Part shown: one piece after another, positions 9,227-50,724 of the stretch
Layout: each line of letters starts with the position of its first letter
Numbering within the stretch: the first letter of the stretch is position 1
Assembly (NCBI GenBank): GCA_032127745.1
Contig: JAQBHL010000368.1
Span: 2,184-66,183 of the forward strand
DNA from: Acidobacteriota bacterium
GTDB lineage: Bacteria > Acidobacteriota > Vicinamibacteria > Fen-336 > JAGNNV01
Length of the DNA stretch: 64,000 bases
Direction of reading: 5' to 3'
The notes under the pieces: model-generated
The model's input: the letters and a program-made list of their open reading frames with translations, nothing else
The model's database searches: none
Told to the model about the DNA's origin: nothing
Translations under genes and position numbers: made by a program

Positions 9227-10315
9227 CTACGGCTTCTGGTATGCGGGGACCGCTCTCAGCACGGGTGCGATGTTTGCCAGGGTGGCGCCCGGCCACATCG
9301 AGGGAACGCCGCGGATGAATGTAATGAGGCCTCCAACCGGCGCCTTCACCTGGCCCGTGACCCGGCCCAGGTAATCGGTGGTCTCGCCGATGACATCGCC
9401 TTCCTTTACGATCGCGCTCCGCTTCGCCTTCGCGAAGAACATGCCCCCGGCGTCGGCCTGGGCGCGCGCGCCGGAGCCGACAAACACCGGCTTGGCCAGG
9501 GGCGTGAACGAGTGCGCGATCATCTTGAGAGAAGCCAGCACGTTCAGGCTGCCCGCGATCAACGCGTCCACGTCCTCGGGAAGAGCCAGTCCGCTTCGGC
9601 CGGCCTCCGCGACGAAGGTTGTCTTTCCAAGGGAAAGCGCGTAGCCGCTGAGGCTGCGGATGCTGTTGAGGTTCGTCACGTCGATGTCGCGCAGGATCAC
9701 GTGGTCAAGACCGAAAGCGCCCACCAGGTCGCGCGACGCCTGGTCCTGGACCTCGTTACCGGTGCGAATCCAGTAGCTGTAGGGCCGGAGGTCCTCGTCC
9801 ATATCGCCGCCATGAAGATCCACGATCACGCTCGCCGGCTTCACAATCTGCTCTGCCACCATGGCCAGCGCCCGCTCGGTCTGCGTGCCCGCCGGGCTGC
9901 CGGGGTAGGAGCCATTCATGGGCTTCCGGTCGACCGGGTTCAGGTGGACCGTCATCTGCTCGAACGACGCGACGTTGAGGAGGGGCGCGACGATAACCGT
10001 GCCGCTCAGCGTCTTCGGATCGATGCGGCTGGTGAGCCGGGTGAGCGCCACTATGGAGGCGTATTCGGTGCCGTGACTCCCCGCGACGAAAGCGACCACG
10101 GGGCCCGGCTTCGCGCCGTTCACCACCGCTATCGCGATGTTCAACGCCGGGTCGGTCCCGGCGGGAACTTTCAACTCGCCGTAGGCGGTGGCGCCGCGGG
10201 TGGCGTTGGCCGTGCCCACCGTGAAGGTCGCGTCTTCGGCGGGAACGATCACGCCTTGGAACGCAAACAAGGCGGCGAGAAGTGCGGGACGGGCAAATCG
10301 TTGGGTGGATCTCAT
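9227..10315 (-). CDS. Succinylglutamate desuccinylase/aspartoacylase family zinc hydrolase, secreted
   Basis: Signal peptide (MRSTQRFARPALLAALFAFQG) and family blocks ...VAFVAGSHGTEYAS...DLHGGD... Confidence 0.7.
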   Translation of the reverse strand: MRSTQRFARPALLAALFAFQGVIVPAEDATFTVGTANATRGATAYGELKVPAGTDPALNIAIAVVNGAKPGPVVAFVAGSHGTEYASIVALTRLTSRIDPKTLSGTVIVAPLLNVASFEQMTVHLNPVDRKPMNGSYPGSPAGTQTERALAMVAEQIVKPASVIVDLHGGDMDEDLRPYSYWIRTGNEVQDQASRDLVGAFGLDHVILRDIDVTNLNSIRSLSGYALSLGKTTFVAEAGRSGLALPEDVDALIAGSLNVLASLKMIAHSFTPLAKPVFVGSGARAQADAGGMFFAKAKRSAIVKEGDVIGETTDYLGRVTGQVKAPVGGLITFIRGVPSMWPGATLANIAPVLRAVPAYQKP

Positions 10316-10521
10316 GGCGCTCCTGGCTCGGCGCGCCGCCTGGCCTTCGGTCACTCCGAAATGGAGGGCGCGTCAACCCCGCGATTGTAGTCCGAAGGGG
10401 CCGGAGCGTCGGCTGCCGTCGAATTGAGTCGGAGGGGGTCTGCAAACCGAGGCGCCGCCCCTGTCCCTGGATCCGAGGTAGGCGAGAATAGGGAGAAGAA
10501 ACACACGCTGAAGGAGGATGG

Positions 10522-11595
10522 ATGGGTTTGCATGGAGTGGTCGTGCTGGGTTTAGGCAAGGTCGGAAGTCTCGTCGGCACGCTGTTGAAAGAGAGCGGTT
10601 TCAAGGTGAGCGGCCTGGACGCGGCGCCGCGAAAGGAGTTGCCCTTCGACACCCAGGTGGTGAACCTGTCGGACGCCGCCGCCCTGCGGCCGTTTCTGAA
10701 GGCCGCCGACGCGGTCGTGAGCTGCCTGCCCTTTCATCTGAACATCGCCCTTTCGAAGGAGGCCCACGCCGCCTCCATCCACTATTTCGATCTGACCGAA
10801 GACGTCGCCACCACGGAGCAGATCCGGGAGCTGGCGAAGAGCAGCAAGCGCGTGATGGCGCCGCAGTGCGGCCTGGCTCCCGGCTTTATTGGCATCGTGG
10901 GGGCTGACCTGGCCAGGAAGTTCGATCGTCTGCGGAGCATCGAGCTGAAAGTGGGTGCCTTGCCCAGGCATCCGCGCGGCAAACTCGGCTACGCCTTCAA
11001 CTGGAGTCCCGAGGGCGTCATCAATGAGTACATCAACGACTGCGAAGTGATCCGGATGGGCCATCGCCAGCTGGTCCCCGCACTGGAAGGCTACGAGATG
11101 GTCGTGATCAACGGCGTCCAGCTCGAAGCCGCCACCACGTCAGGGGGCCTGGGCACGATGTGCGAGACCTACGAGGGGAAGGTGGAAACGCTCCACTACA
11201 AGACCATGCGGTACCTCGGCCACTTCGAGCACATCAAATTCCTCTTCCAGGAACTGCGCATGCAGGAAGACCGAGCCGCCCTGGGCCGGATCATGAAGAA
11301 CGCCCTGCCCCCGGTGGCCGAGGACTACGTTTTCGTCCACGCCGCGGTGGAAGGCTGGAAAGACGATCAGCTTTCTCGCGAAGAGTTCGTGCGTTCGTAC
11401 CCCCAGATGCAGGTCGTAGGTCAAGAGTGGCGCGCGATCAGCTGGACCACCGCCGCGAGTCTGTGCGCGGTCATCGAAATGGTGCGCGATGGGAACCTGC
11501 CCCAGCAGGGCTTCCTGAAACAGGAATCGATTCCGCTCGATGGCTTCCTGAAGACGAAGAACGGCGCCTACTACCTGAGCCACGAGCGGTCCTAG
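10522..11595 (+). CDS. Saccharopine dehydrogenase family NAD(P)-binding protein
   Basis: N-terminal Rossmann motif VVVLGLGKVGSLV. AAGGAGG Shine-Dalgarno 4 nt upstream of the ATG. Length and blocks fit saccharopine/lysine dehydrogenase-like enzymes. Confidence 0.8.
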   Translation: MGLHGVVVLGLGKVGSLVGTLLKESGFKVSGLDAAPRKELPFDTQVVNLSDAAALRPFLKAADAVVSCLPFHLNIALSKEAHAASIHYFDLTEDVATTEQIRELAKSSKRVMAPQCGLAPGFIGIVGADLARKFDRLRSIELKVGALPRHPRGKLGYAFNWSPEGVINEYINDCEVIRMGHRQLVPALEGYEMVVINGVQLEAATTSGGLGTMCETYEGKVETLHYKTMRYLGHFEHIKFLFQELRMQEDRAALGRIMKNALPPVAEDYVFVHAAVEGWKDDQLSREEFVRSYPQMQVVGQEWRAISWTTAASLCAVIEMVRDGNLPQQGFLKQESIPLDGFLKTKNGAYYLSHERS

Positions 11596-11755
11596 TCCAG
11601 GCTCCGGGTGACGGCGGGGGTGACGACGGCGGCCGGGTCGCCTCGATTCGCCGCGGATCGAGTCGCCACATCACCTCGGTCGATCCGCCGATGGCGACCA
11701 GCCGCCCCTTCCGGCTCTTGTGGGAAACTCGGGCCAGCGAATAACCTTATCGGCT

Positions 11756-12325
11756 ATGGCCATCAACGTATCGGACCTGAAGCGCGGCGACATCCTGGAG
11801 ATCGACGGTGACCCCTGGCAGGTGGGAGAGGTCCAGTCGCAGACGCCCTCCGCGCGTGGCGCGTCCATGTTGATCAAGACCAAGATCAAGAATCTCCGCA
11901 CCGGACAGAGCCAGGCCAAGACCTGGCGCGGCGGCGACATGGAGAAGAACGCCGAGGTGGACTACCGCAACGCCCAGTTTCTCTACAAGCAGGGCGACGA
12001 TTTCGTGTTCATGGACCTCGCTTCTTATGAGCAGTTCACCCTGGCCGCGGACCATGTGGGCGACGCCGCCGGCTTCATGCTCGAGAACCTGGAGGTCCGC
12101 ACCACCCTGTTTCAGGACCGGGTGATCGCTCTGATCCTGCCCATTGCCGTGGATCTCGAGGTCAAGGAGACGGCGCCCGCCATCAAAGGGGCCACCGCGC
12201 AGGCTCAACTCAAGCCCGCGATCACCGAAACCGGGGCCCAGGTGATGGTGCCGTCCTACGTCGAGACGGGCGAGAGGATCCGGGTCGACACTCGGGACGG
12301 CCGGTTTCTGGAGCGATCCAAGTGA
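11756..12325 (+). CDS. efp: Elongation factor P
   Basis: MAINVSDLKRGDILEIDGDPWQV...KTKIKNLRTG...VPSYVETGERIRVDTRDGRFLERSK aligns with EF-P along its full length (KOW/OB domains). Confidence 0.9.
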   Translation: MAINVSDLKRGDILEIDGDPWQVGEVQSQTPSARGASMLIKTKIKNLRTGQSQAKTWRGGDMEKNAEVDYRNAQFLYKQGDDFVFMDLASYEQFTLAADHVGDAAGFMLENLEVRTTLFQDRVIALILPIAVDLEVKETAPAIKGATAQAQLKPAITETGAQVMVPSYVETGERIRVDTRDGRFLERSK

Positions 12326-20477: not shown

Positions 20478-21851
20478 TCAGGTGAGGGTCAGCTGGTTGC
20501 CGCCCGCGCGTTTGGAGGCGTAGAGGCGTCGGTCGGCGACCTCGAGCAGTTCGGCCCCGGTCCTCGCGTCGATGGGCAGGGCCGCGCCGCCCACGGAGAA
20601 GCAGGGTGCCTCGAAAGGGAACGGAGGTGTGGCCAGAGCCCACAGGCGGTTCCGCTCTTCGATCATCCTCTCGAACATGCGCGGGGCGATCGCGGCGGGG
20701 CTGCCCGCGATCAGGATGGCGAACTCCTCTCCTCCGTAGCGGCACACCGTGTCGTTCTGGCGGGCCACCGCGCGGAGGAGTTCTCCGAAGAGGGTCAGGA
20801 CCCGGTCGCCGGTGGGATGGCCGTGGGTGTCGTTGATCCGTTTGAACTGATCGAGGTCGATGAGAAGGAGGAGAAGTCCGTCGCTCCTGGTCTGGGCGCG
20901 GTCGCTCTGGATCCGCAGCTCGTGATCGAAATAGGCGCGGTTGAAGACGCCGGTGAGGGCGTCGCGCACCGCCACCTGCTGGAGATCCCGGAACCGATCC
21001 TTGTAGGTGACGGGGCCGCTCGAACGGTTGGGCCTTCCGCGGCCGGTCGGACTCGCGGGCAGTCCCGAAAAAGGCAGGAGGAAAGCGAAGGCCAGCGAAT
21101 AGAACACCGCCGCGCCCACCTTTGCGATCAGGTCCATCGGGAGGATGCTGCCAGACCGGAGATTCGCTCCAAAGACCGCGAACGGAAGGACGAGGGCGTC
21201 GAAGGCGAGACTGACGCTGAGCGCGAACAGAGCCCGGGCCAGAATGATCCGGCTCACCCGGTCTCCGAACCACTCGAAGGCCCGGATCAGAATGAGCGCG
21301 TCGATGGCCAGCAGGATCGACCCGAGGATGATGATTCGGCAGAGACGAGCCGCGGCCTCGGAGCTCAGGCGGATGCCGCCGGCCAGGTCCGGCACGTCGA
21401 TCAGGGGTTGACCGGAGAAGATGACCAGGGCGAGCGCGACATTGGCCAGGAGAATGCCGTACACCAGCCGCCGCGCCTCCGCTTCGTCTTCCAGGACGTA
21501 GACGAGCAGAATGGCGAACAGAGTGGCGGGGAAGACGGCCACCGCGCCCGGGCTGATGGTCGCGCCCGGGAAGACTTCGATGCGGGTGCCCATGACCAGG
21601 ACGAGCTGGAGCACCTGAAAGAGTCCGGCCAGCACCGCGATCGGGGCGATTCCCCAGAACCTGCGGAACCTCGCGGCCACGACGATGCACCCAGCCAGGA
21701 GCAGGGCCATGAGGCCAAGACGAGTCAGGCTGGCGGTGAAGTTCGGGTTGAGATCGACCACTTGGTTTCGGGAAGGCGCGATTGTGACAGGCCTTCGGCG
21801 CTTCCGCCACTCCGATGGCCGGGAAGCGCCCAGCCGTTGCGAGATCGGCAC
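20478..21851 (-). CDS. Membrane-anchored diguanylate cyclase (multi-TM N-terminal domain + GGDEF domain)
   Basis: RYGGEEFAIL active-site motif and DLDQFKRINDTHGHPTGD. About 7 N-terminal TM helices. Confidence 0.85.
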   Translation of the reverse strand: MPISQRLGASRPSEWRKRRRPVTIAPSRNQVVDLNPNFTASLTRLGLMALLLAGCIVVAARFRRFWGIAPIAVLAGLFQVLQLVLVMGTRIEVFPGATISPGAVAVFPATLFAILLVYVLEDEAEARRLVYGILLANVALALVIFSGQPLIDVPDLAGGIRLSSEAAARLCRIIILGSILLAIDALILIRAFEWFGDRVSRIILARALFALSVSLAFDALVLPFAVFGANLRSGSILPMDLIAKVGAAVFYSLAFAFLLPFSGLPASPTGRGRPNRSSGPVTYKDRFRDLQQVAVRDALTGVFNRAYFDHELRIQSDRAQTRSDGLLLLLIDLDQFKRINDTHGHPTGDRVLTLFGELLRAVARQNDTVCRYGGEEFAILIAGSPAAIAPRMFERMIEERNRLWALATPPFPFEAPCFSVGGAALPIDARTGAELLEVADRRLYASKRAGGNQLTLT

Positions 21852-21879
21852 CGCCGGTCAACTATGCTCGTGCTCCTCG

Positions 21880-23925
21880 ATGACTGCTTCGCGCCTTGGC
21901 TTTCGGATCGACGCGGCGGCGGCGGGCTCGAGGGCCAGAGCCGCCACCATGAGCACAAGGCGACATGAGGTGCAGACCCCTCTCTTCATGCCGGTGGGAA
22001 CGCAGGCGTCGGTGAAGGCGCAGCCTCCCGAAGCCCTGGCCGCCGCGGGCTCCCAGATCCTCCTCGCCAATACCTACCATCTGCTCCTGCGGCCCGGCCT
22101 CGAGGTCTTTAAGAAGGTGGGCGGCATCCATCGCTTCATGACCTGGGACCGGTCGGTCCTGACCGACTCGGGGGGCTACCAGATCTTCTCCCTCCCGCAC
22201 TCCCGCGCCGTCACCGACGCGGGCGCCGTCTTCCAGAGCTACATTGACGGGAAGAGCATCCTGCTCTCGCCGAAGGTAAGCATCGAGGCCCAGATGGTCA
22301 TCGGCAGCGACATCATGATGGTGCTCGATCAGTGTGTCCCCTCCACCGCCGACCGGGCCACGGTCAAGGCCGCCCTGGATCTCACCCACCGCTGGGCGGC
22401 CCAGAGCCTCGAGGCGCGCGGCGATGCGCCGGGGTCGATGTTCGGCATCGTGCAGGGCGCCTTGTTCCCCGATCTGCGCCGGGAGAGTGTCGAGCGTCTC
22501 GCCCTTATGCCCTTCGAGGGTCTCGCCATCGGCGGCCTGGCCGTGGGCGAGTCGAAGGAAGAACGGCAGGACATGTGCGAGCTGACCGCGGCCATGATGC
22601 CGAAGGACAAGCCGCGCTACCTGATGGGGGTGGGCACGCCGCTCGACATCCTGGAGGCCGTGCACCGGGGGGTCGACATGTTCGACTGCATCATTCCCAC
22701 CCAGCTCGCGCAGCGGGGCGGCGTGTTCACGTCCCGCGGCTACGTGCAGCTCCGGCGCGGCGTTCACAAACTCGCGGACCTGCCCTTGGATCCGAAATGC
22801 GGTTGTCCGACCTGCGCCCGCTATTCCCGCGCCTATCTGCACCATCTGACCAAGTCCAGTGAGCCCCTGGGCTGGCAGCTTCTGGGCCAGCACAACCTCT
22901 ACTTCTATCACCAGCTCATGCGCGACGTTCGCGAGAGCATTCTGGCCGGCGCCTTCGCCGCGTTTTACGCGGAACGGCGGGAGATTCTCGGCGAACACGA
23001 CATAGACAATGAGATCGCGAAGGTCAAGGTGCGGCCCGCGCCGCCAAAAACCCGCGGCCAGTTCGAGGTGCATCTGGCCAAGGAGGGCTTTGGCGCCATC
23101 CGGCATGTGGCTTCGGGCGAGACCATGCACGCGCACACCTCGCCCATGGATGAGGCCCGATCGCTCTACGTCGAGCAGGCCAGGGTAAGGGAGCGGGTGC
23201 GCCTGTCCGGGAATTCCAATCCGGCCGAGGCCGAGCCGCTGGTGATCTGGGACGTGGGCCTGGGAGCGGCGGCGAACGCCATCGCCGCGATTCACTGCTA
23301 TCAGGAAGAGGCGGACTCGGGCGCCGTCCGTCCGCTGCGCGTGGTCAGCTTCGAGAACGACCTCGACGCCCTGCGGCTGGCTTGCCAGAACCTCAAGCAC
23401 TTTCCTTACCTCCGTCATGGCGGTCCGGGCGGTCTGCTCGAAAGGGGGGAGTGGCACTCCAAGAAGTATCCGGGCCTTCACTGGTATCTCGTGGAAGGCG
23501 ACTTCCAGGAAGGGATGGCCCGCTCGCCCTTCGCGCCGGACCTCATCTTCTTCGACTTGTTCTCGAGCCGGACCAACGCCGAGGCATGGACCCTGGAGTC
23601 CTTCCAGCGTCTTTATGCGGCTTGTGCCGGTAGAGATGTGGAGCTGTTCACCTACACGTCTTCCACCGCCGCGCGCGTGGCCATGCTGGGGGCGGGGTTT
23701 CATCTGGCCAAAGGACGCGCCACGGACTGGCAGTCCGAGACCACCATCGCCTTTACCCCGGGTGCTTTGACTCGCGGAACCGCGGAAAGGCACGACGGCC
23801 TCGGTTCTTCGTGGCTGTCCAAATGGAAGCGCTCGCAGGCGCGCTTTCCGAGGGATCTGGTGGAGTCTGAATATGAGGCGTTCGAAAGAGTGATTCTGGA
23901 TCACCCGCAGTTTCGCCTGATGTAA
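21880..23925 (+). CDS. tgt: Queuine tRNA-ribosyltransferase fused to a C-terminal MnmC-like (DUF752/Methyltransf_30) domain
   Basis: N-terminal ~370 aa is Tgt (FRIDAAAAGSRARAATM..TPLFMPVGT, zinc site CGCPTCARYSRAYLHHL). The C-terminal ~300 aa aligns with the MnmC N-terminal methyltransferase domain (LVIWDVGLGAAANA...FFDLFSSRTNAEAWT...FTYTSSTAAR). Confidence 0.8.
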   Translation: MTASRLGFRIDAAAAGSRARAATMSTRRHEVQTPLFMPVGTQASVKAQPPEALAAAGSQILLANTYHLLLRPGLEVFKKVGGIHRFMTWDRSVLTDSGGYQIFSLPHSRAVTDAGAVFQSYIDGKSILLSPKVSIEAQMVIGSDIMMVLDQCVPSTADRATVKAALDLTHRWAAQSLEARGDAPGSMFGIVQGALFPDLRRESVERLALMPFEGLAIGGLAVGESKEERQDMCELTAAMMPKDKPRYLMGVGTPLDILEAVHRGVDMFDCIIPTQLAQRGGVFTSRGYVQLRRGVHKLADLPLDPKCGCPTCARYSRAYLHHLTKSSEPLGWQLLGQHNLYFYHQLMRDVRESILAGAFAAFYAERREILGEHDIDNEIAKVKVRPAPPKTRGQFEVHLAKEGFGAIRHVASGETMHAHTSPMDEARSLYVEQARVRERVRLSGNSNPAEAEPLVIWDVGLGAAANAIAAIHCYQEEADSGAVRPLRVVSFENDLDALRLACQNLKHFPYLRHGGPGGLLERGEWHSKKYPGLHWYLVEGDFQEGMARSPFAPDLIFFDLFSSRTNAEAWTLESFQRLYAACAGRDVELFTYTSSTAARVAMLGAGFHLAKGRATDWQSETTIAFTPGALTRGTAERHDGLGSSWLSKWKRSQARFPRDLVESEYEAFERVILDHPQFRLM

Positions 23926-23935
23926 GGTCTTGGCT

Positions 23936-25437
23936 CTATTCGACTCGCAGTGCTTCGAGGGGGCTGATGCTGGTGGCCCGGCGCACCGGGGCCAGGCAGG
24001 CGAGAACGGCGGCGAGGGTGATCAGCACCGGTGCTACGGAGAGCGACAGGGGATTGGTTGCGGCCACTCCGTAGAGCAGCTTCCCGACCATCTGCGAGAA
24101 GGCGAGATACACCCCGAGCCCGGCCACGATGCCGATGGCCACCAGGGTTCCACCCTGGCGAAGGACGAGCTCCGCAATGCTTCGCCGGCTGGCGCCAAGA
24201 GCAATGCGCACACCGAACTCCGATGTCCTCTGGGCCACCGCGAAGGCGAGCACGCCGTAGACGCCCAGAACCGCGAGCAGGAGCGCCACCGCGCTGAAGA
24301 GCGAGATCGAAATCATGGTCGCGCGTCGAGACAAAGAGACGGTGTCGATACGTTGCTGCATCGTCTTGATGTCGAACACCGGCTGGTCCGGGTCTGCAGC
24401 CTTCACCGCCTCGCGCAGCGCCGGAGCGAGGCGCAGGGCGTCGCCCTCCGCTTTCGCCGCGATGATGAGGTTCGGCCGCGGGCTCTGGGCGTACGGGTAG
24501 TAGATGGCCTCCTTGGTCACGTCTTCATCGAGGCTTTGGAACTTGATGGGTGCTATGACTCCGACGATTGTCCACGGGTGTTCGGGGTCGCCGCGCACTA
24601 TGCGCTTGCCGAGAGGATCCTGGCCGGGCCAGTACTTGTCGGTCAGCAGCCGGTCGACCACGACCACGGGCGGTGTGGTCGCCACGTCCGCTTCCTCGAA
24701 CAGCCGCCCTCGCAGCAAGGTCATCCCGAGCGTCTTGAAGTAACCGGGATCCACCACGCGTTGCCGGGGGGGTGAGGCTCGGGCGCTCCGGCCGGCACCA
24801 CGATGTCGGGGCTCGAGTAGCTGCCGGAGCCGTTGCGGCCCGCGAACGGAATGAGGTCCGTCATCCCGGCCGAGGTAACTCCGGGGAGAGCCCGGACGCG
24901 CGAGAGAACCGCGTCCGTGAAGGCGATCCTCTTCTCCGGCACCTCGTACCGAGCGGGGGGCAGGGCGAGTTGAACCGTGATAATGCCGTTCGGGCTGAAG
25001 CCAGGGTTCTCGCGCTGAAGAGCTTCAAAGCTCTTGACCAGCAGCGACGCGGTGGAAAGCAGCATCACCACGAGGCCGATTTCGGTGACGACCAGCGCGG
25101 AGCGGAGGAACTGCGTGTGCTTTCCGCCCGACCTGCCCCGTCCTCCGACTTCCTTCAAGGTGGTGGCGGTGTCTTCCCGGGCCGCGCTCCAAGCCGGGAG
25201 CGCGCCGAAAAAGACGCCGGTCGCGAGGGCGCAAGCGAGCGTGAAGGTCACGACGGTCACGTCCAGCTCGACGCTGAAACCGCGGGGCAGAGTGGAAAGC
25301 CCCAATTGACCAAGGGCGGTGACACCCCACCAGGCGACCAGCACGCCCAGGATTCCTCCGCCCGCGAAAAGCAGGACGCTCTCGGTGAAGGCCTTCGACT
25401 TCCCGAGGGCGCGGATGGAGTAGCGGATGTCGTTCAT
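23936..25437 (-). pseudogene. Degenerate ADOP/MacB-like FtsX permease paralog (internal deletion plus frameshift)
   Basis: Two overlapping ORFs in different frames (24721-25437 and 23936-24757). The first has TM1 (DIRYSIRALGKSKAFT...) joined directly to the second half of the protein. The second carries the C-terminal FtsX domain. Confidence 0.55.
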
Positions 25438-30913: not shown

Positions 30914-32275
30914 TGGATGGTCAGCAGATCTCGCGTGAGGCCCTCCTGAGTCGCGGAAGCGGGCCCGCCCGGTCCCATGACCTTCTCTTGCGGGCCGTGC
31001 TTCTGGACGATGCCGCTGCGGCCCGGGCGGCGTGGGCCGCGTGGGCGGATCTGGCCCCCGAGCCCGTCCTCGACGACGCGTCATCGCGCCTGCTCCCGCT
31101 GCTTTATCGGCGGCTCGCCGGACCCCCACCCCATGCTCGAAGGCACCGCTTCCAGAATCTCGGTTGCCCTGTCTTCCCGCGCCGCGGCCGCCTTCCAGCG
31201 GACGCGTTATAGAAACGCCTTGCTCTTTGCCGAGGCGGCCACGGCGATGCGGGCGTTGAGCGATGCGGGGGTCGACACCTGCCTGCTCAAGGGCGCCGCG
31301 CTCGCGGTGACGGTCTACGACGAGCCCGCGCTCCGGCCCATGAGTGACGTCGATATCCTGGTTCCGCCGACGGAACTGAACCTGGCGGTGGCCGCCCTGC
31401 AGGGAGCGGGCTTTCAGACCTCGTCGCCCTTCGGTCCGGCAGAGCGTGCCGAAGCCCACGCCGCGGGGTTCACCAACCTGACCTACGGGTCCATCGACCT
31501 CCACTGGAGGAGCCTCGATGTCGCCGCCTCCGCCGCCGGCGACCTTGGCCTTTGGGCCGCGTCACGGCCCGCGGTGTTGGGCGGCGCCGCCACGCGGGTT
31601 CCGGCCTTCACCGACCTGCTGCTCCACGCGTGCGTTTCCGGCCAGCGCTGGGGCGCCGACCAGGCATGCCGGTGGGTCGCCGATGCGCTCGCGATCCTGA
31701 CCCACCCCGGGGAGGCCGTGGACTGGGAGAGATTCGAACGCGAGGCGGTGGACAAGCGGGAGGCCGGGCCGGTCGCCGAGGCCCTCCACTATCTGCGCAC
31801 GCTTGGAGCGCCGGTGTCCGCGGACGTCCCGGCACGCCTGGCTCGCGGGCGTCCGGGCCTTGCCGGGAGGTTGCTGGTCCAGGCACGCGGGCAGGACCCC
31901 GAGCAGCGGGGTCCGCTTCTCGCGGGCGCCTTGCACTACGAGTCCTATCGGCGCCTCCTCGAGGGCGGGATTGTTCCCATCGGACTGCTGGGGTTTGTAC
32001 GCTCGGCCGCGCGCACCTGGGGTCTGCGCTCCGCCTGGCAGGTGCCGATGCACACGCTGGTTCGAGGTGCGAGACGTCTGGCGCAGCTTCTGGCCCAGCG
32101 GGCGAAGCCAGGCCGGCTCCGCCTCCGCGGAGCCCCCGGATCGCCGCCACCGGTCGCGCAGGGGGCCGGGCAAAGGGGCGGCGGTCCGCGGTTACCCGAT
32201 GCGGGTGGGGGCGGGTCGCGCGGCTCTCGCTCCCCGCATCCTATTCGCCGACCAGGGAATCAACCAGGCGGTTGA
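30914..32275 (+). pseudogene. Nucleotidyltransferase family (NTP_transf_5-like) paralog, frameshifted
   Basis: The N-terminal homology (HDLLLRAVLLDDAAAARAAWAAWADL...SSRLLPLLYRRLAG) is in frame 1. The remainder (ALLFAEAATAMRALSDAGVDTCLLKGAALAV...MSDVDILVPP...IDLHWRS) is in frame 2. The switch is at the C5AC4 run near 31121-31132. Confidence 0.5.
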
Positions 32276-33353
32276 ACCGACTTCTATCGGGCGGGCTGAT
32301 GCTGGCGATTTCGGTCCCATAGACGAAGGAGTTGACGTCGGGAGTTTTGTTGAGGATCCTGCACAATAGGATCACGGGTTCGTCGTGCCCCTCGACTTCG
32401 AGTTTCACCTTGACGATCGCCTCCGGGGACAGATCGTCCTCACAGATGAAACGGATCCCCCCCTTGCTGACGTTCAGGGTTCGAATGCTCGAGGTCGAGG
32501 CGGCAAAGTTGGCGAGTTCGCCCCGGATGGAAGCGGTCAGGCGTTTGAATCGCCTCTGGTTTTCGGAGAATAGGCAGACGATGTTCTTGCCCGAGCCCTT
32601 GGCGTTGTACAAGGCCTTGTCGGCATTCGAGATGAGAAGCTGGGTGCTATCGCAGTCATGCGGGTAGGTGGCGACGCCCAGAGAGGCAGTCACCGACATC
32701 AGGTGCCTTGGGGTGCTGTTCTCGTTCACGAACTCGTGCACGGAGATCTTCTCGCACAGCCGGTTGGCCACGTCATAGGCCTCCTGCTTGGCCTGCCTGG
32801 GGAGGATCACGGCGAATTCTTCGCCGCCGTAGCGGAATGCGGGACCATAGGCCAAGGTCTCGGCCTGGATGAGCTTGGCGATCTGCCGGAGAATGCCGTC
32901 ACCGGTCAGGTGCCCATAGTCGTCGTTGACGTGTTTGAAATTGTCGATATCGAGGATCACCAGCGACAACTCTTCGCCCCGATGCACGGCCCCTTCCATC
33001 TCCGCCTGGATGCATTGCTTGAAGTAGCGAAAGTTGAACATGGACGTCAAGTCATCCAGGATCACCTTCTCTTGAGTTCTCTGGAGAACCTTCATCTCGA
33101 TGATCTTTGGGTTCTCCAGCAGTTTGTTCTCATTGATGAAGTAGCTCAGGGTGGTGACTCGGGTGTCGATCGGGTAGCCCAGATCCTTTTCGAACTTGAG
33201 GTGGTACTTCTTGAACTCATCCCAATGCCTGATGGCGTCGGCTTCCTCAAACTCCAGGTGAGTGAGCAGGTAGAAGTAGTTCCGGAATACCTCCACGCCC
33301 TGGTTCGCGGCGCTCAGAGACCGGAGGGATGCCTCCACTTGAGCGAGTCTCAT
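32241..33353 (-). CDS. GGDEF diguanylate cyclase fused to a C-terminal PilZ domain
   Basis: RYGGEEFAVIL GGDEF motif. The C-terminus has PilZ signatures (RRFKR = RxxxR, NVSKGG = D/NxSxGG). Start taken at the internal ATG (MRLAQVE...) because the upstream ~130 codons of the ORF are Arg/Gly-rich and unlikely to be coding. A TTG ~70 nt upstream is an alternative. Confidence 0.8.
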   Translation of the reverse strand: MRLAQVEASLRSLSAANQGVEVFRNYFYLLTHLEFEEADAIRHWDEFKKYHLKFEKDLGYPIDTRVTTLSYFINENKLLENPKIIEMKVLQRTQEKVILDDLTSMFNFRYFKQCIQAEMEGAVHRGEELSLVILDIDNFKHVNDDYGHLTGDGILRQIAKLIQAETLAYGPAFRYGGEEFAVILPRQAKQEAYDVANRLCEKISVHEFVNENSTPRHLMSVTASLGVATYPHDCDSTQLLISNADKALYNAKGSGKNIVCLFSENQRRFKRLTASIRGELANFAASTSSIRTLNVSKGGIRFICEDDLSPEAIVKVKLEVEGHDEPVILLCRILNKTPDVNSFVYGTEIASISPPDRSRFNRLVDSLVGE

Positions 33354-33842
33354 GTGGGGGGTTTCAAAGATCTGGCTCAACTCTGTTGGCGCAGAATCAT
33401 CGTCCTGATGCTCGTCGGTCAATGGCGGACCCCTTTCAGTTTGCTTCCCGCCGCCGAGAAGAGCGGTCCGGTTCGTAGATCGTACCGCGATCGCGCCGCT
33501 CGGGGGTGCTCGGTCGCCGGTTCTCCCCCGGGATCGGCCCAATGCGGTCGAGCGCCTCCCGGCCCTCCCCTGGCCGCGAAGAGTTCGGATCCGGGCCGGC
33601 CCTCTCTCTCCGGTGCGCGGCCGGCGTCCCCCCTTCTTGCCTGCGACACGGTGACGGAACTCATGGAGGGCTCGACCCGCATGTTTCCAGGCTCGTGTCC
33701 CGGGGAGACTGAGCCTACCGCGACCGCCTCCGGCCCGCCGCAAGTTGCCCCCCCAAGGCTCCGATCACCGCCAACCCGAGCCACGTTCCTCCGGTCATCC
33801 CGGCCGATGAAGACCAGGCGTGCCCGTCCAACCGCCCGTCGA

Positions 33843-39056: not shown

Positions 39057-39067
39057 AGACTGCGGGC

Positions 39068-40321
39068 ATGGACATCGCACGCCCTGACCTTGCGATCAAA
39101 CGCAGGAAGCGGAACATTCAGCTCGGCATCGGCGCCGCCGTGCTCCTGCTGAGCGCCACCTGGGGCCTGTCCCAGCTCAAGCCCGCCGCCCCGAGCGTGG
39201 ACCGCGGAACGCTCTTCCTCGACAAGGTGAAGCGTGGCGAAATGCTGCTGCAGGTTCGCGGCCTGGGCACGCTGGTGCCCGAGGAAGTTCGCCTGATCCC
39301 CGCCCTCACCGAGGCCCGGGTTGAGCGCATCGTGGCTCTACCCGGGACCATCGTGAAGCCGGACACGGTCATCCTGGAGATGTCGAACCCCGACCTGGAG
39401 CTCCAGGTCCTCGATGCCGAGTCTCAGCTGCGTGAAGCTGAGGCGCGGCTGATCGAGGCGCGGTCGCGCATTGAAGTCTCGCGGCTGGACCAGCAGGCGA
39501 CCGCGGCGCGCGTGGCTTCCGAAGCCCGGCAGGCTCGGCTTCGGGCCGACGCCGACGTGGAACTGGCGGCCCAGGGCCTGGTCGCCGGCTTGAACGCGAA
39601 GATATCGAAGTCGGCGGCCGACGAACTCGAGAGTCGGGCCAAGATCGAGCAGGAGCGGCTCAAGCTCTCCACTTCGTCCATTGACGCGCAAATTGCGGTG
39701 CCCCGCGCCACCGTCGAACAAAGGCTCGGCACCGCCCGCCTTCGCCGCGCCCAGCGCGACGCGCTGAGAGTCCGCGCCGGTATCACCGGCGTGCTGCAGT
39801 CGGTGGCGGTCGAGGTCGGTCAGCGGGTGAGTCCGGGCACGAATCTGGCTCGCGTGGTGGAGCCAACCAAGCTCAAGGCGGTTATCCGAGTGGCCGAGAC
39901 TCAAGCCAAGGACCTCGCCATCGGCCTGCCCTGCGACATCGACACCCGGAACGGCATCGTGAAGGGCAAGGTCACGCGCATCGATCCGGCGGCTCAGAAC
40001 GGAACCGTGGCGGTGGACGTGGCCCTCGAGGGCGAGTTGCCCAGAGGTGCGCGTCCCGATCTGACTGTCGATGGAACCATCGAGCTGGCCCGCCTTGAAG
40101 ACACTCTCTATGTGGGCCGGCCCGCCCAAGGGGCAGGGGAGAGCACCATCAGCCTGTTCCGCGTCGATCCGGCAACCGGCGAGGCCTACCGGGTGCGAGT
40201 TCGTCTCGGCCGGGCTTCGGTGAACAGTGTTCAGATCCTTGAAGGCCTGGAACTGGGTGATGAAGTGGTTCTCTCCGACGCTTCGGCCTGGGATGCCTTC
40301 GACCGAATTCGATTGAAGTGA
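39068..40321 (+). CDS. Efflux transporter periplasmic adaptor subunit (MacA/HlyD family)
   Basis: N-terminal TM, long coiled-coil hairpin, lipoyl and beta-barrel blocks (VVEPTKLKAVIRVAE...GKVTRIDPAAQNGTVAVDV). Confidence 0.85.
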   Translation: MDIARPDLAIKRRKRNIQLGIGAAVLLLSATWGLSQLKPAAPSVDRGTLFLDKVKRGEMLLQVRGLGTLVPEEVRLIPALTEARVERIVALPGTIVKPDTVILEMSNPDLELQVLDAESQLREAEARLIEARSRIEVSRLDQQATAARVASEARQARLRADADVELAAQGLVAGLNAKISKSAADELESRAKIEQERLKLSTSSIDAQIAVPRATVEQRLGTARLRRAQRDALRVRAGITGVLQSVAVEVGQRVSPGTNLARVVEPTKLKAVIRVAETQAKDLAIGLPCDIDTRNGIVKGKVTRIDPAAQNGTVAVDVALEGELPRGARPDLTVDGTIELARLEDTLYVGRPAQGAGESTISLFRVDPATGEAYRVRVRLGRASVNSVQILEGLELGDEVVLSDASAWDAFDRIRLK

Positions 40322-40457
40322 GTAGCCGAATCTTCCGACCAAACGTCAAAGAAATGCGGAACATAAGACGCGCGGCCGACGTTGAACCGCGAAAGAGCAT
40401 CTCTCGTTTTTGAAAAGCACCCCCCTGAAAAGACCCCCCCCAGGAGCACAGAGAACC

Positions 40458-41174
40458 ATGACCGATTCCCCTTCCTTGATCGACCTCTCCGGCGTCACCA
40501 AGGTCTTCCTGACCGATGAAGTCGAGACCCACGCTCTTTCGGGCATCCACCTCAAGATCGAGAAGGGCGAGTTCGTGGCCATCGCCGGGCCTTCGGGCTG
40601 CGGCAAGTCGACCCTGCTCTCCATCCTCGGCCTGCTCGACTCGCCGACTGGCGGCCAGTACATCCTGAACGGCCAGCCCGTGGCCAAGCTCACCGCCGCC
40701 GATCGGGCCCGGGTCCGGAACCGTGAGATTGGCTTCATCTTCCAGAGCTTCAACCTCATCGGCGATCTCACCGTCTTCGAGAATGTCGAACTCCCGCTGA
40801 CCTATCGCGGCACCAGTTCGGCGGAGCGGAAGAAGCGTGCGATGGACTCGCTCGAGCGCGTGGGCATGGGACATCGGGCCAAGCATCTTCCCAGCCAGCT
40901 CTCCGGCGGTCAGCAGCAGAGAGTCGCGGTGGCGAGAGCCCTCGTGGGCGCGCCCGCTGTCCTCCTCGCCGACGAGCCGACGGGTAATCTCGACTCGAAG
41001 AACGGCGATGCGGTGATGGCATTGATGACCGAGCTTCATCAGGGCGGCGCCACCATCGTCATGGTCACCCATGATCCCCGGTTCGCGCGCTATGCCGACC
41101 GCACCATCCACATCTTCGACGGCCGCATCGTTGAAGAGGGCTCGATTCCCACCGACAGCGCCCAGATCGCGTAA
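40458..41174 (+). CDS. ABC transporter ATP-binding protein (MacB/LolD-like ATPase)
   Basis: Walker A GPSGCGKST, signature LSGGQQQRVAVARAL, Walker B LLADEPTGNLD. The stop overlaps the next gene start (TAATG). Confidence 0.85.
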   Translation: MTDSPSLIDLSGVTKVFLTDEVETHALSGIHLKIEKGEFVAIAGPSGCGKSTLLSILGLLDSPTGGQYILNGQPVAKLTAADRARVRNREIGFIFQSFNLIGDLTVFENVELPLTYRGTSSAERKKRAMDSLERVGMGHRAKHLPSQLSGGQQQRVAVARALVGAPAVLLADEPTGNLDSKNGDAVMALMTELHQGGATIVMVTHDPRFARYADRTIHIFDGRIVEEGSIPTDSAQIA

Positions 41175-49832: not shown

Positions 49833-49997
49833 ATGTTGAGCCGTCTCACGGACGACGCCACCGCAGCGGTGCGGGCGTTGCGACGCAACCCTCGCCTGAC
49901 CCTGGTCATGGTGTTGACCCTTGGCCTGGGTCTGGGCGCAAACACGACGATCTTCTCAGCCATCGACCATCACCTACCAGGCGCACTGGAGACATAG
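49833..49997 (+). pseudogene. N-terminal remnant (54 codons) of another ADOP permease paralog
   Basis: MLSRLTDDATAAVRALRRNPRLTLVMVLTLGLGLGANTTIFSAIDHHLPGALET* is the characteristic permease N-terminus/TM1, ending in a stop. GGAGGAG lies upstream. Not in the ORF track (<60 aa). Confidence 0.4.
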
Positions 49998-50004
49998 ACA
50001 TCTC

Positions 50005-50724
50005 ATGATCGAACTACGCAATCTCGAAAAGTCATACCCCCTCGCCGCGGGCCGGGTGTACGTTCTTCGCAACATCACTCTCTCGATCGCGGAGGGCGAG
50101 TTCGTGTCGATCATGGGCCCTTCGGGAGCAGGGAAGTCGACCCTGCTGCACATTCTCGGCATGCACGACGGCGACTTCACCGGCGACTACGAATTCCGCG
50201 CGGAGATCGTGAACAAGTTGAAGCCTCGTGATCGGCAGGAACTGCAGAAGCGAAACATCGGTTTCGTCTTCCAGAGCTTCCATCTGCTCGACGATCTGAC
50301 CGTGTACGAGAACCTTGAACTGCCCCTTTCCTACCGTGACCTGAAGAAGGCCGAGCGACAGGCCATCGTGGGCGATGTTCTCGACAAGTTCAACATCGTG
50401 GGGAAGAAGGATCTGTATCCCTCGCAGCTCTCCGGAGGTCAGCAGCAACTGGTGGGGGTGGCCCGCGCCATCGTGGCCAAGCCGAAGGTGATCCTCGCCG
50501 ACGAGCCCACGGGCAACCTGCACTCGGACCAGGGTCGCGAAATCATGGAGCTTTTCAAGAGCCTCAACCAGGAAGGCTGCACGATCATTCAGGTCACACA
50601 CTCGGAGACGAACGCGACGTATGGAAACCGGGTCATTCGGCTGAAGGACGGCTGGCTCGCCGCACCCGCCCCTGGGCGACCGGGGGCGGCGCCCGCCCAA
50701 TCCGGCTCGACCCGGGCCGACTGA
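50005..50724 (+). CDS. ABC transporter ATP-binding protein (MacB-like ATPase)
   Basis: Walker A GPSGAGKST, signature LSGGQQQLVGVARAI, Walker B LADEPTGNL. Confidence 0.85.
   Translation: MIELRNLEKSYPLAAGRVYVLRNITLSIAEGEFVSIMGPSGAGKSTLLHILGMHDGDFTGDYEFRAEIVNKLKPRDRQELQKRNIGFVFQSFHLLDDLTVYENLELPLSYRDLKKAERQAIVGDVLDKFNIVGKKDLYPSQLSGGQQQLVGVARAIVAKPKVILADEPTGNLHSDQGREIMELFKSLNQEGCTIIQVTHSETNATYGNRVIRLKDGWLAAPAPGRPGAAPAQSGSTRAD

Follow-up and report, generated by a model that had tools for sequence, protein, structure and literature searches.

What does a methyltransferase related to MnmC do when it is built into the same polypeptide as Tgt, the transglycosylase of the queuosine pathway? The question is raised by a gene at 21880..23925 (+) in a 64,000-nucleotide stretch of Acidobacteriota DNA (class Vicinamibacteria; GenBank assembly GCA_032127745.1, contig JAQBHL010000368.1, positions 2,184 to 66,183; hereafter the window, meaning this whole stretch). 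An original prediction had read the gene as one open reading frame (ORF) of 681 codons, in which a complete Tgt domain is followed by a match to the N-terminal methyltransferase domain of MnmC. It had further described the arrangement as a non-canonical fusion of two enzymes that modify the tRNA wobble position 34 in different pathways. Our analysis supports the architecture and slightly favors a bifunctional enzyme over one that carries out ordinary methylation of 5-aminomethyl-(2-thio)uridine at position 34 (nm5(s2)U34). In such an enzyme, Tgt would install preQ1 (7-aminomethyl-7-deazaguanine) and the MnmC2-like domain would methylate the aminomethyl group of the same base. This reading is tentative, and we give it a probability of about 0.40.

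A single uninterrupted frame encodes both domains

Translation from the ATG at 21880 yields 681 residues followed by the sole stop codon, and the complete gene lies within one larger open frame (21685..23925, +) in the ORF list. The junction between the halves reads ...FYAERREILGEHDIDNEIAKVKVRPAPPKTRGQFEVH..., with no stop codon or frameshift near 23000, the place that the original prediction had marked for checking. The predicted single ORF is thus confirmed as an uninterrupted frame, and the same continuity is seen in 68 of 80 related loci. A public protein of 658 residues (P0275) is 100% identical to the window protein, of which it is called from Met24. Neither sequence, when looked up exactly, led to a recorded contig. 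The start at 21880 is the better one: of the residues upstream of Met24, F8 and A19-A21 do not vary in 50 orthologues, and this segment matches the beginning of E. coli Tgt, with residues 6-20 of the fusion protein aligned to its first residues (about 1-20). The P0275 call drops this conserved N-terminal strand (window 21880-21948).

The N-terminal half resembles a canonical preQ1-type Tgt

Residues 1-372 (21880..22995, +) make up the Tgt domain according to Pfam TGT (residues 18-368, E 7.7e-138), the NCBIfam equivalog TIGR00430 (cut-off 306.75 bits, score 426.5 bits, spanning model positions 7-365 of 368) and alignment with E. coli Tgt (45% identity over 363 residues). Five further fused proteins score 403-450 bits on TIGR00430. 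The catalytic residues D96 and D269 and the zinc ligands C307, C309, C312, and H338 show no variation in 50 full-length orthologues and have their counterparts at the aligned positions of E. coli Tgt. The preQ1-pocket residues D150 and C152 (LDQC) and the segment G218-GLAVGE-224 are likewise invariant in this set. We take the Z. mobilis counterparts to be D102 and D280 for catalysis and D156, C158, and L231-A232-V233 for the pocket. The invariant pocket pattern presumably marks the preQ1-inserting bacterial type of Tgt and not the queuine-inserting one. The significance given here to the pocket residues follows published work on Tgt specificity (for example, PMC3660597).

The claim of a complete Tgt domain therefore stands, with the equivalog cut-off passed and the catalytic, zinc, and preQ1-specificity residues all present. 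It is well supported by sequence that this half is a canonical bacterial preQ1-type Tgt, predicted to exchange G34 for preQ1 in tRNAs with GUN anticodons. Bacterial Tgt from E. coli and Z. mobilis shares with the fusion both catalytic Asp residues, a zinc site of the form Cys-x-Cys-x2-Cys...His, and the Cys/Val pair by which preQ1-specific bacterial enzymes are recognized. In contrast to Tgt of model organisms, the fusion protein bears a C-terminal addition of ~310 residues, and its gene does not stand in the queA-tgt-yajC arrangement of E. coli.

The C-terminal half carries an MnmC2-like methyltransferase fold

The core of a class I S-adenosylmethionine (SAM) methyltransferase resembling MnmC2 occupies residues ~393-632 (23056..23775, +), as delineated by Pfam, AlphaFold2, Foldseek, and hhalign. 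Pfam Methyltransf_30 (PF05430) matches residues 537-624 with 36.8 bits, above its gathering score of 22, so that the profile proposed for checking this half does recognize it. When solved structures were searched by sequence, the sole match was MnmC2/DUF752 of Aquifex aeolicus (3VYW; E 2e-5, residues 16-251 of the 308-residue query). An AlphaFold2 model of the C-terminal domain, built from 44 homologues, reached a predicted local distance difference test score (pLDDT) of 92.8 and a predicted template modeling score (pTM) of 0.90. Its top Foldseek match in the PDB was again 3vyw (E 7e-16, TM 0.62, 301 aligned columns), followed by 2qy6, 3ps9, and 3awi (the E. coli MnmC N-terminal domain; full E. 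coli and Yersinia MnmC). Spermidine synthases were the next fold matches (E 4e-7) and, together with generic methyltransferases, lay well behind the MnmC structures. Alignment by hhalign with residues 1-260 of E. coli MnmC gave 90.7% probability at 22% identity. No DAO/flavin adenine dinucleotide (FAD) oxidase domain was found by Pfam or NCBIfam in the 681-residue protein.

The motifs of the family can be followed through the domain: motif X (S412-G-E-x-M-H417), motif I (D458-V-G-L-G-A-A-A-N466), motif II (S490-F-E492), motif IV (D559-L-F561-S-S-R-T-N566-A-E568-A-W570), and motif VI (Y592). In the DUF752 scheme, these correspond to the (Gx)GxGxN of motif I, the Glu of motif II, the DxFxP of motif IV, and the aromatic residue of motif VI, and the equivalents of N566 and E568 are the Asn and Glu that contact adenine (PMC3527978). 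The DxFxP-like FFDLFSSRTNAEAW block lies where the original prediction had placed it. Its counterpart in the alignment is FHDAFSPYKNPELW in Aquifex MnmC2 and the region of DGFAPAKNPDMW in E. coli MnmC. Measured against the DUF752 signature, DxF, E492, and Y592 are kept, the motif IV Pro is replaced, and the third Gly of motif I is Ala. Motif IV reads DLFSS in the window protein and D[PLM]FS across the fused clade. In the orthologue alignments D559, F561, N466, E492, and Y592 are invariant. Since these residues define the active site, MnmC2-type catalysis is indicated and not a purely structural role. We therefore conclude, on the strength of motifs and model, that the C-terminal half is a predicted active N-methyltransferase of MnmC2-like type.

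Nevertheless, the domain does not qualify for the curated MnmC2 equivalog NF033855: its 51.5 bits (residues 412-612) fall short of the cut-off of 136, as do the 55-64 bits of other fused proteins. On the models of bifunctional MnmC, whose cut-offs are 540 and 600 bits, the protein scored 32 and 20. Beyond the core there is a helical C-terminal extension of ~50 residues (residues ~633-681; 23776..23922, +), recognized by conservation (W645, W649, S652, P657, and H675-x-Q-F678) and by helices predicted at 643-651, 662-673, and 676-679 in the full-length AlphaFold2 model. The extension is conserved in the fused clade and in a standalone sister clade, and it lies outside the alignment to residues 1-260 of E. 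coli MnmC. The claimed match to the MnmC N-terminal domain hence holds for the fold, the PF05430 profile, and the motifs, whereas the equivalog threshold is missed and the extension is additional.

These features also bear on whether the C-terminal domain might have another role altogether, such as action on a different amine, position, or molecule, transfer of a SAM-derived group other than methyl, or service as an extra tRNA-binding module. Substrate specificity is not readable from sequence, the spermidine synthases that come next after MnmC2 in fold are aminopropyl transferases, and the family-specific extension of ~50 residues has no assigned role, all of which would leave room for such a role. 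However, the active-site residues of MnmC2-type N-methyltransferases are invariant, and the fold match to MnmC2 is far stronger than that to spermidine synthases (E 7e-16 versus 4e-7). We consider another role unlikely.

The two domains appear to be flexibly tethered

The halves are joined by a linker of ~20 residues (residues ~373-392; 22996..23055, +), a segment of low model confidence and variable sequence that is poorly conserved in orthologue alignments. In the full-length AlphaFold2 model both domains are folded, residues 374-384 have a pLDDT below 50, and the pTM is 0.53. Because the linker varies, its pLDDT is this low, and the pTM is only 0.53, the model indicates that the two domains are flexibly tethered and not packed as a fixed unit.

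The fusion recurs across two phyla

A genome scan covering one genome per species, queried with an alignment of the C-terminal domain, detected relatives of this domain in the genomes of at least 582 species, and the best 80 of these were compared at the level of the locus. A single stop-free frame containing both the Tgt motif FMPVGT and the methyltransferase motif WDVGLG was present in 68 of the 80, which answers the call for a survey of related genomes. The 80 loci fall into two phyla. Those from Acidobacteriota belong to Vicinamibacteria (68-72% identity) and Thermoanaerobaculia; those from Verrucomicrobiota are mostly from Chthoniobacterales and include the cultured type strain Chthoniobacter flavus Ellin428. 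The fusion was also found in the isolate strain sgz303538, on a closed 7.8-Mb chromosome. At the protein level, the 120 best full-length matches are all at least 644 residues long; by precomputed annotation, both Pfam domains are present in 115 of them, and TGT is the only one given for the other five. The description of the fusion as non-canonical is accordingly apt in comparison with model organisms, but in Chthoniobacterales and some Acidobacteriota it is the standard form of the gene.

The remaining loci include three cut by contig ends, four from long-read assemblies with a shift of frame within the Tgt part itself, and three methyltransferase-only genes; two apparent split gene pairs (L001 and L002) are frameshift artefacts as well. 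The frameshift-broken fusion genes come from long-read metagenome assemblies (L001, L002, L012, L029, L049, and L075, inside the Tgt part). Such loci give rise to spurious 'standalone' MnmC-like calls of 280-430 residues, which inflate the counts of unfused homologues in protein databases. L001 and L002 had been considered as unfused tgt/methyltransferase pairs; this was rejected, as tblastn shows the Tgt part changing frame, the mark of long-read indels. The three methyltransferase-only genes (L061, L068, and L081; ~10001-10870 in each locus) are genuine. They come from Verrucomicrobia, have no tgt within 10 kb, and encode proteins 53-57% identical to the methyltransferase domain of the window, which is the range of the fused Verrucomicrobia loci. 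Their neighbors are unrelated (DNA polymerase III alpha, a DUF2911 protein, and a TonB receptor). These genes may be secondary fissions.

Could the fusion itself be an artefact, in which a sequencing or assembly error merged two adjacent genes? The window derives from a metagenome-assembled contig, and long-read assemblies do break the same gene by frameshift in the six loci named above. However, the assembly errors seen split the gene and never join it, and 68 of 80 independent genomes, among them the isolates Chthoniobacter flavus Ellin428 and sgz303538, have the gene as one unbroken frame. The G+C content at third codon positions is also high in both halves of the gene (0.87 and 0.79). The explanation by artefact is effectively refuted. 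No tgt and methyltransferase genes that are adjacent but unfused were seen among the loci inspected, and for this reason we do not regard the fusion as an accidental read-through of neighboring genes.

Both domains come from known families and the architecture is visible in public sequence data, yet annotation ignores the second domain: the named matches are called solely "tRNA guanosine(34) transglycosylase Tgt" or "queuine tRNA-ribosyltransferase". No paper describing or testing the fusion was found in the searchable literature, including searches for DUF752/PF05430 architectures and for Chthoniobacter with queuosine; the only pertinent papers were PMC3527978 and PMC10516641.

Fused and standalone relatives form separate groups

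A profile search of 1.84 billion cluster representatives returned 446 clusters at E below 1e-30. In a neighbor-joining tree, all fused proteins fall into one group, and a separate second group consists entirely of standalone proteins of 270-300 residues. Many short "standalone" entries scattered within the fused group have the appearance of gene calls that were truncated. In the standalone sister clade ('MnmC family methyltransferase'; labeled MnmC in IMG), the few members that bear a name are Bdellovibrionales. This clade is the nearest sequence relative of the fusion domain and aligns with it over the full length, including the C-terminal extension, at profile scores of about 200-230 bits. 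It differs in keeping the canonical motif IV proline (D-[FY]-Y/F-s-P-k..p.lW), whereas the fused clade lacks the prolines of DxFxPxxNP. On NF033855 the standalone proteins score 59-90 bits, somewhat above the fused proteins but still under the cut-off of 136.

Odd architectures among the relatives (AMIN, DUF5522, and a 988-residue form) were checked and offered no functional clue, and a scan of viral contigs gave no viral relative of the C-terminal domain. TrhO is another wobble-U34 enzyme, and on the JGI contig that holds P0234 a standalone sister-clade gene has as its head-to-head neighbor a TrhO-like gene with UPF0176_N and rhodanese domains. As a functional clue this single case was judged too weak and was not used.

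Do the two domains act on the same wobble nucleotide?

In the sequence of events that we favor, the Tgt domain would exchange G34 for preQ1 in the tRNAs for Asp, Asn, His, and Tyr. The linker-tethered C-terminal domain, with SAM and its Asp-x-Phe motif, would then methylate the primary aminomethyl group of the flipped-out wobble base. Its target would be the 7-aminomethyl of preQ1, either in a tRNA that Tgt has just let go or in the free base that is yet to be inserted. Position 34 would then carry 7-(methylaminomethyl)-7-deazaguanosine, which would replace queuosine or compete with queuosine synthesis. The chemistry would be that of the conversion of nm5U to mnm5U, and the novelty would lie in the base that bears the amine (C7 of 7-deazaguanine versus C5 of U).

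The argument for this order of events starts from the tRNAs. Tgt acts on G34 and MnmC2 on U34, and we infer that their substrate sets are disjoint; tethering would therefore pay only if the methyltransferase uses the product of Tgt. Besides, the Tgt half is of the canonical preQ1 type and the methyltransferase half keeps the MnmC2 fold and active-site motifs, and in both cases the group to be methylated would be a primary aminomethyl on a wobble base. The fusion is fixed across two phyla (one frame in 68 of 80 loci), no stage with adjacent but separate genes was seen, the fused clade forms its own cluster that has diverged at motif IV, and the fused proteins fail the MnmC2 equivalog cut-off (51-64 bits versus 136). 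The reaction itself has a natural counterpart, as N-methyl-preQ1 occurs in phage DNA, where it is made by an unrelated enzyme (PMC10516641). There, DpdM (DUF3109) N-methylates the aminomethyl group of preQ1 after the Tgt-family protein DpdA has inserted the base, which is the reaction proposed here for the fusion (PMC10516641). DpdM differs in that it acts on DNA and in that its fold, which binds metal, is unrelated and does not include a Rossmann SAM domain. QueA, the S-adenosylmethionine:tRNA ribosyltransferase-isomerase, offers a second parallel: it uses SAM to derivatize the same amine of preQ1-34 right after Tgt, and in E. coli queA adjoins tgt. It differs in its unrelated fold and in transferring the ribosyl and not the methyl group of SAM, and neither the window nor any of the fetched loci yielded a match to it.

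Alternatively, the polypeptide could simply combine two independent wobble activities, with the C-terminal half serving as MnmC2 (MnmD). On the Tgt side, preQ1-tRNA would go on to queuosine through QueA and QueG/QueH encoded elsewhere. On the other side, the methyltransferase would act on nm5(s2)U34 supplied by the ammonium route of MnmE/MnmG in tRNA-Lys, Glu, Gln, and others, without MnmC1, as in Aquifex; the fusion would then give co-expression only. Homology argues for this, in that both the closest fold and the sole solved-structure match by sequence are Aquifex MnmC2, the PF05430 gathering score is exceeded, and the catalytic and SAM-binding motifs are conserved. The fusion domain and the Aquifex protein have the same fold and the same motif order, share DxF, the Glu of motif II, and the Tyr of motif VI, and neither has an FAD oxidase partner; both the N- and the C-terminal modules of the fusion domain align with the 308-residue Aquifex protein. 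There is precedent for an MnmC2 that acts without the MnmC1 oxidase, in Aquifex (PMC3527978). The label MnmC in IMG for the standalone sister clade and the flexible linker, with no confident interface between the domains, would fit independent action as well.

Against independent action stand the wide miss of the MnmC2 equivalog cut-off and the identity of only about 20% to characterized enzymes. Compared with Aquifex MnmC2, the fusion domain lacks the motif IV prolines and has GLGAAAN in place of GFGxGxN in motif I, and it is joined to Tgt instead of being joined to MnmC1 or standing alone as MnmC2 does. Furthermore, with non-overlapping tRNA sets, there would be no obvious benefit to explain why the fusion is so strictly conserved in at least two phyla. 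Neither the window nor 85 related loci yielded an mnmE, mnmG, or mnmA, which at ±10 kb per locus is weak evidence. Independent action is a serious possibility, although we would not put it at even odds. The idea that the two halves serve different wobble-34 pathways is one of two comparably likely readings.

Several points weigh against sequential action on preQ1. To our knowledge, every characterized member of the MnmC2 family methylates nm5(s2)U34. MnmC itself provides an example of fused tRNA-modifying domains that are able to work independently, and the full-length AlphaFold2 model of the fusion gives no confident interface or geometry between the domains. N-methyl-preQ1 in tRNA has no report in the searchable literature. 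In the six standalone-clade contexts inspected, tgt is neither fused nor adjacent; given this lack of any link between the sister clade and tgt, methylation of nm5U was probably the ancestral function. The choice of preQ1 as the substrate is accordingly a tentative one.

Sequential action on preQ1 predicts that genomes with the fusion lack queA and queG/queH. The E. coli queries QueA, QueG, QueF, MnmE, and MnmG had no tblastn match in the window or in the 85 loci (±10 kb each). The original prediction had also asked whether a separate mnmC/mnmE/mnmG set exists: no separate mnmC, mnmE, or mnmG was detected in the 64-kb window, and the 85 loci, as just stated, yielded no mnmE or mnmG.

Queuosine is among the best-studied tRNA hypermodifications, and no branch in which a queuosine precursor is methylated in tRNA was found in the searchable literature. 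It is conceivable, with about the confidence given to preQ1 as substrate, that Chthoniobacterales and some Acidobacteriota do not finish queuosine, or do not make only queuosine, and that a neofunctionalized MnmC2 domain gives them an undescribed wobble nucleoside. If true, the nucleoside would parallel, by convergence and at the level of RNA, the modification mdPreQ1 of phage DNA. Either outcome would matter. Hundreds of abundant species of soil and freshwater carry the fusion, at least two isolates among them, under the annotation "Tgt" only. Should the domain act on preQ1, the wobble nucleoside would be new and an MnmC2 domain would clearly have been recruited to a purine analogue; should it act on nm5(s2)U, it would be the missing MnmC2 of two large phyla and part of a rare fusion of enzymes from two wobble pathways.

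Genomic context of the fusion gene

ORF clustering over 82 loci gave a patchy neighborhood for the fusion gene (PPK2, GHL10, SIR2, and a response-regulator kinase), with each neighbor present in at most 14 loci and no que or mnm gene among those shared. An Rfam scan found no riboswitch near the gene. In the window, it is preceded by a divergent gene for a VUPS ('vitamin uptake-like sensor') membrane sensor with a GGDEF diguanylate cyclase domain (20478..21851, -; Pfam), and the two start codons are 28 nucleotides apart. We give this gene as context and not as a demonstrated part of the system: the head-to-head pairing recurs only in the close Vicinamibacteria loci L003, L005, and L006 and does not occur in Verrucomicrobia. 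A kinship of the VUPS sensor to the preQ0/preQ1 transporter YhhQ was considered and dropped, as there was no Pfam or BLASTP similarity.

Directly downstream and convergent lies a remnant of ~1.5 kb of an ADOP/MacB-FtsX permease gene (23936-25437, -), consisting of two overlapping frames (23936-24757 and 24721-25437) and lacking the first periplasmic/FtsX half present in paralogues of ~800 residues. Truncation or a frameshift probably accounts for the state of this copy. In L005, the orthologous position can be aligned over nearly the full length with ADOP1, an intact paralogue in the window, which suggests, from the alignment, a full-length permease gene at that position.

The rest of the window encodes ADOP-type permeases, signaling proteins, efp, a DEAD/DUF3516 helicase, and one tRNA-Leu. 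The permeases amount to a large expansion of a single family, with six full-length duplicated MacB_PCD-FtsX ('ADOP') paralogues within 25 kb (25464-49740), interspersed with an HlyD-type adaptor and two ABC ATPases (39059-41174 and 49918-50724). The efp gene, at about 11750-12325, encodes an Arg-type loop (PSARGAS) and lies just downstream of a saccharopine-dehydrogenase-like gene (10492-11595), upstream of which an AstE/AspA-like gene (9227-10372) is found on the opposite strand. This grouping (9227-12325) could be a coincidence or a hint of a locus for EF-P modification. Finally, a second diguanylate cyclase gene is present at 32241-33764 (-), its product being fused to a C-terminal PilZ receptor domain for cyclic di-GMP.

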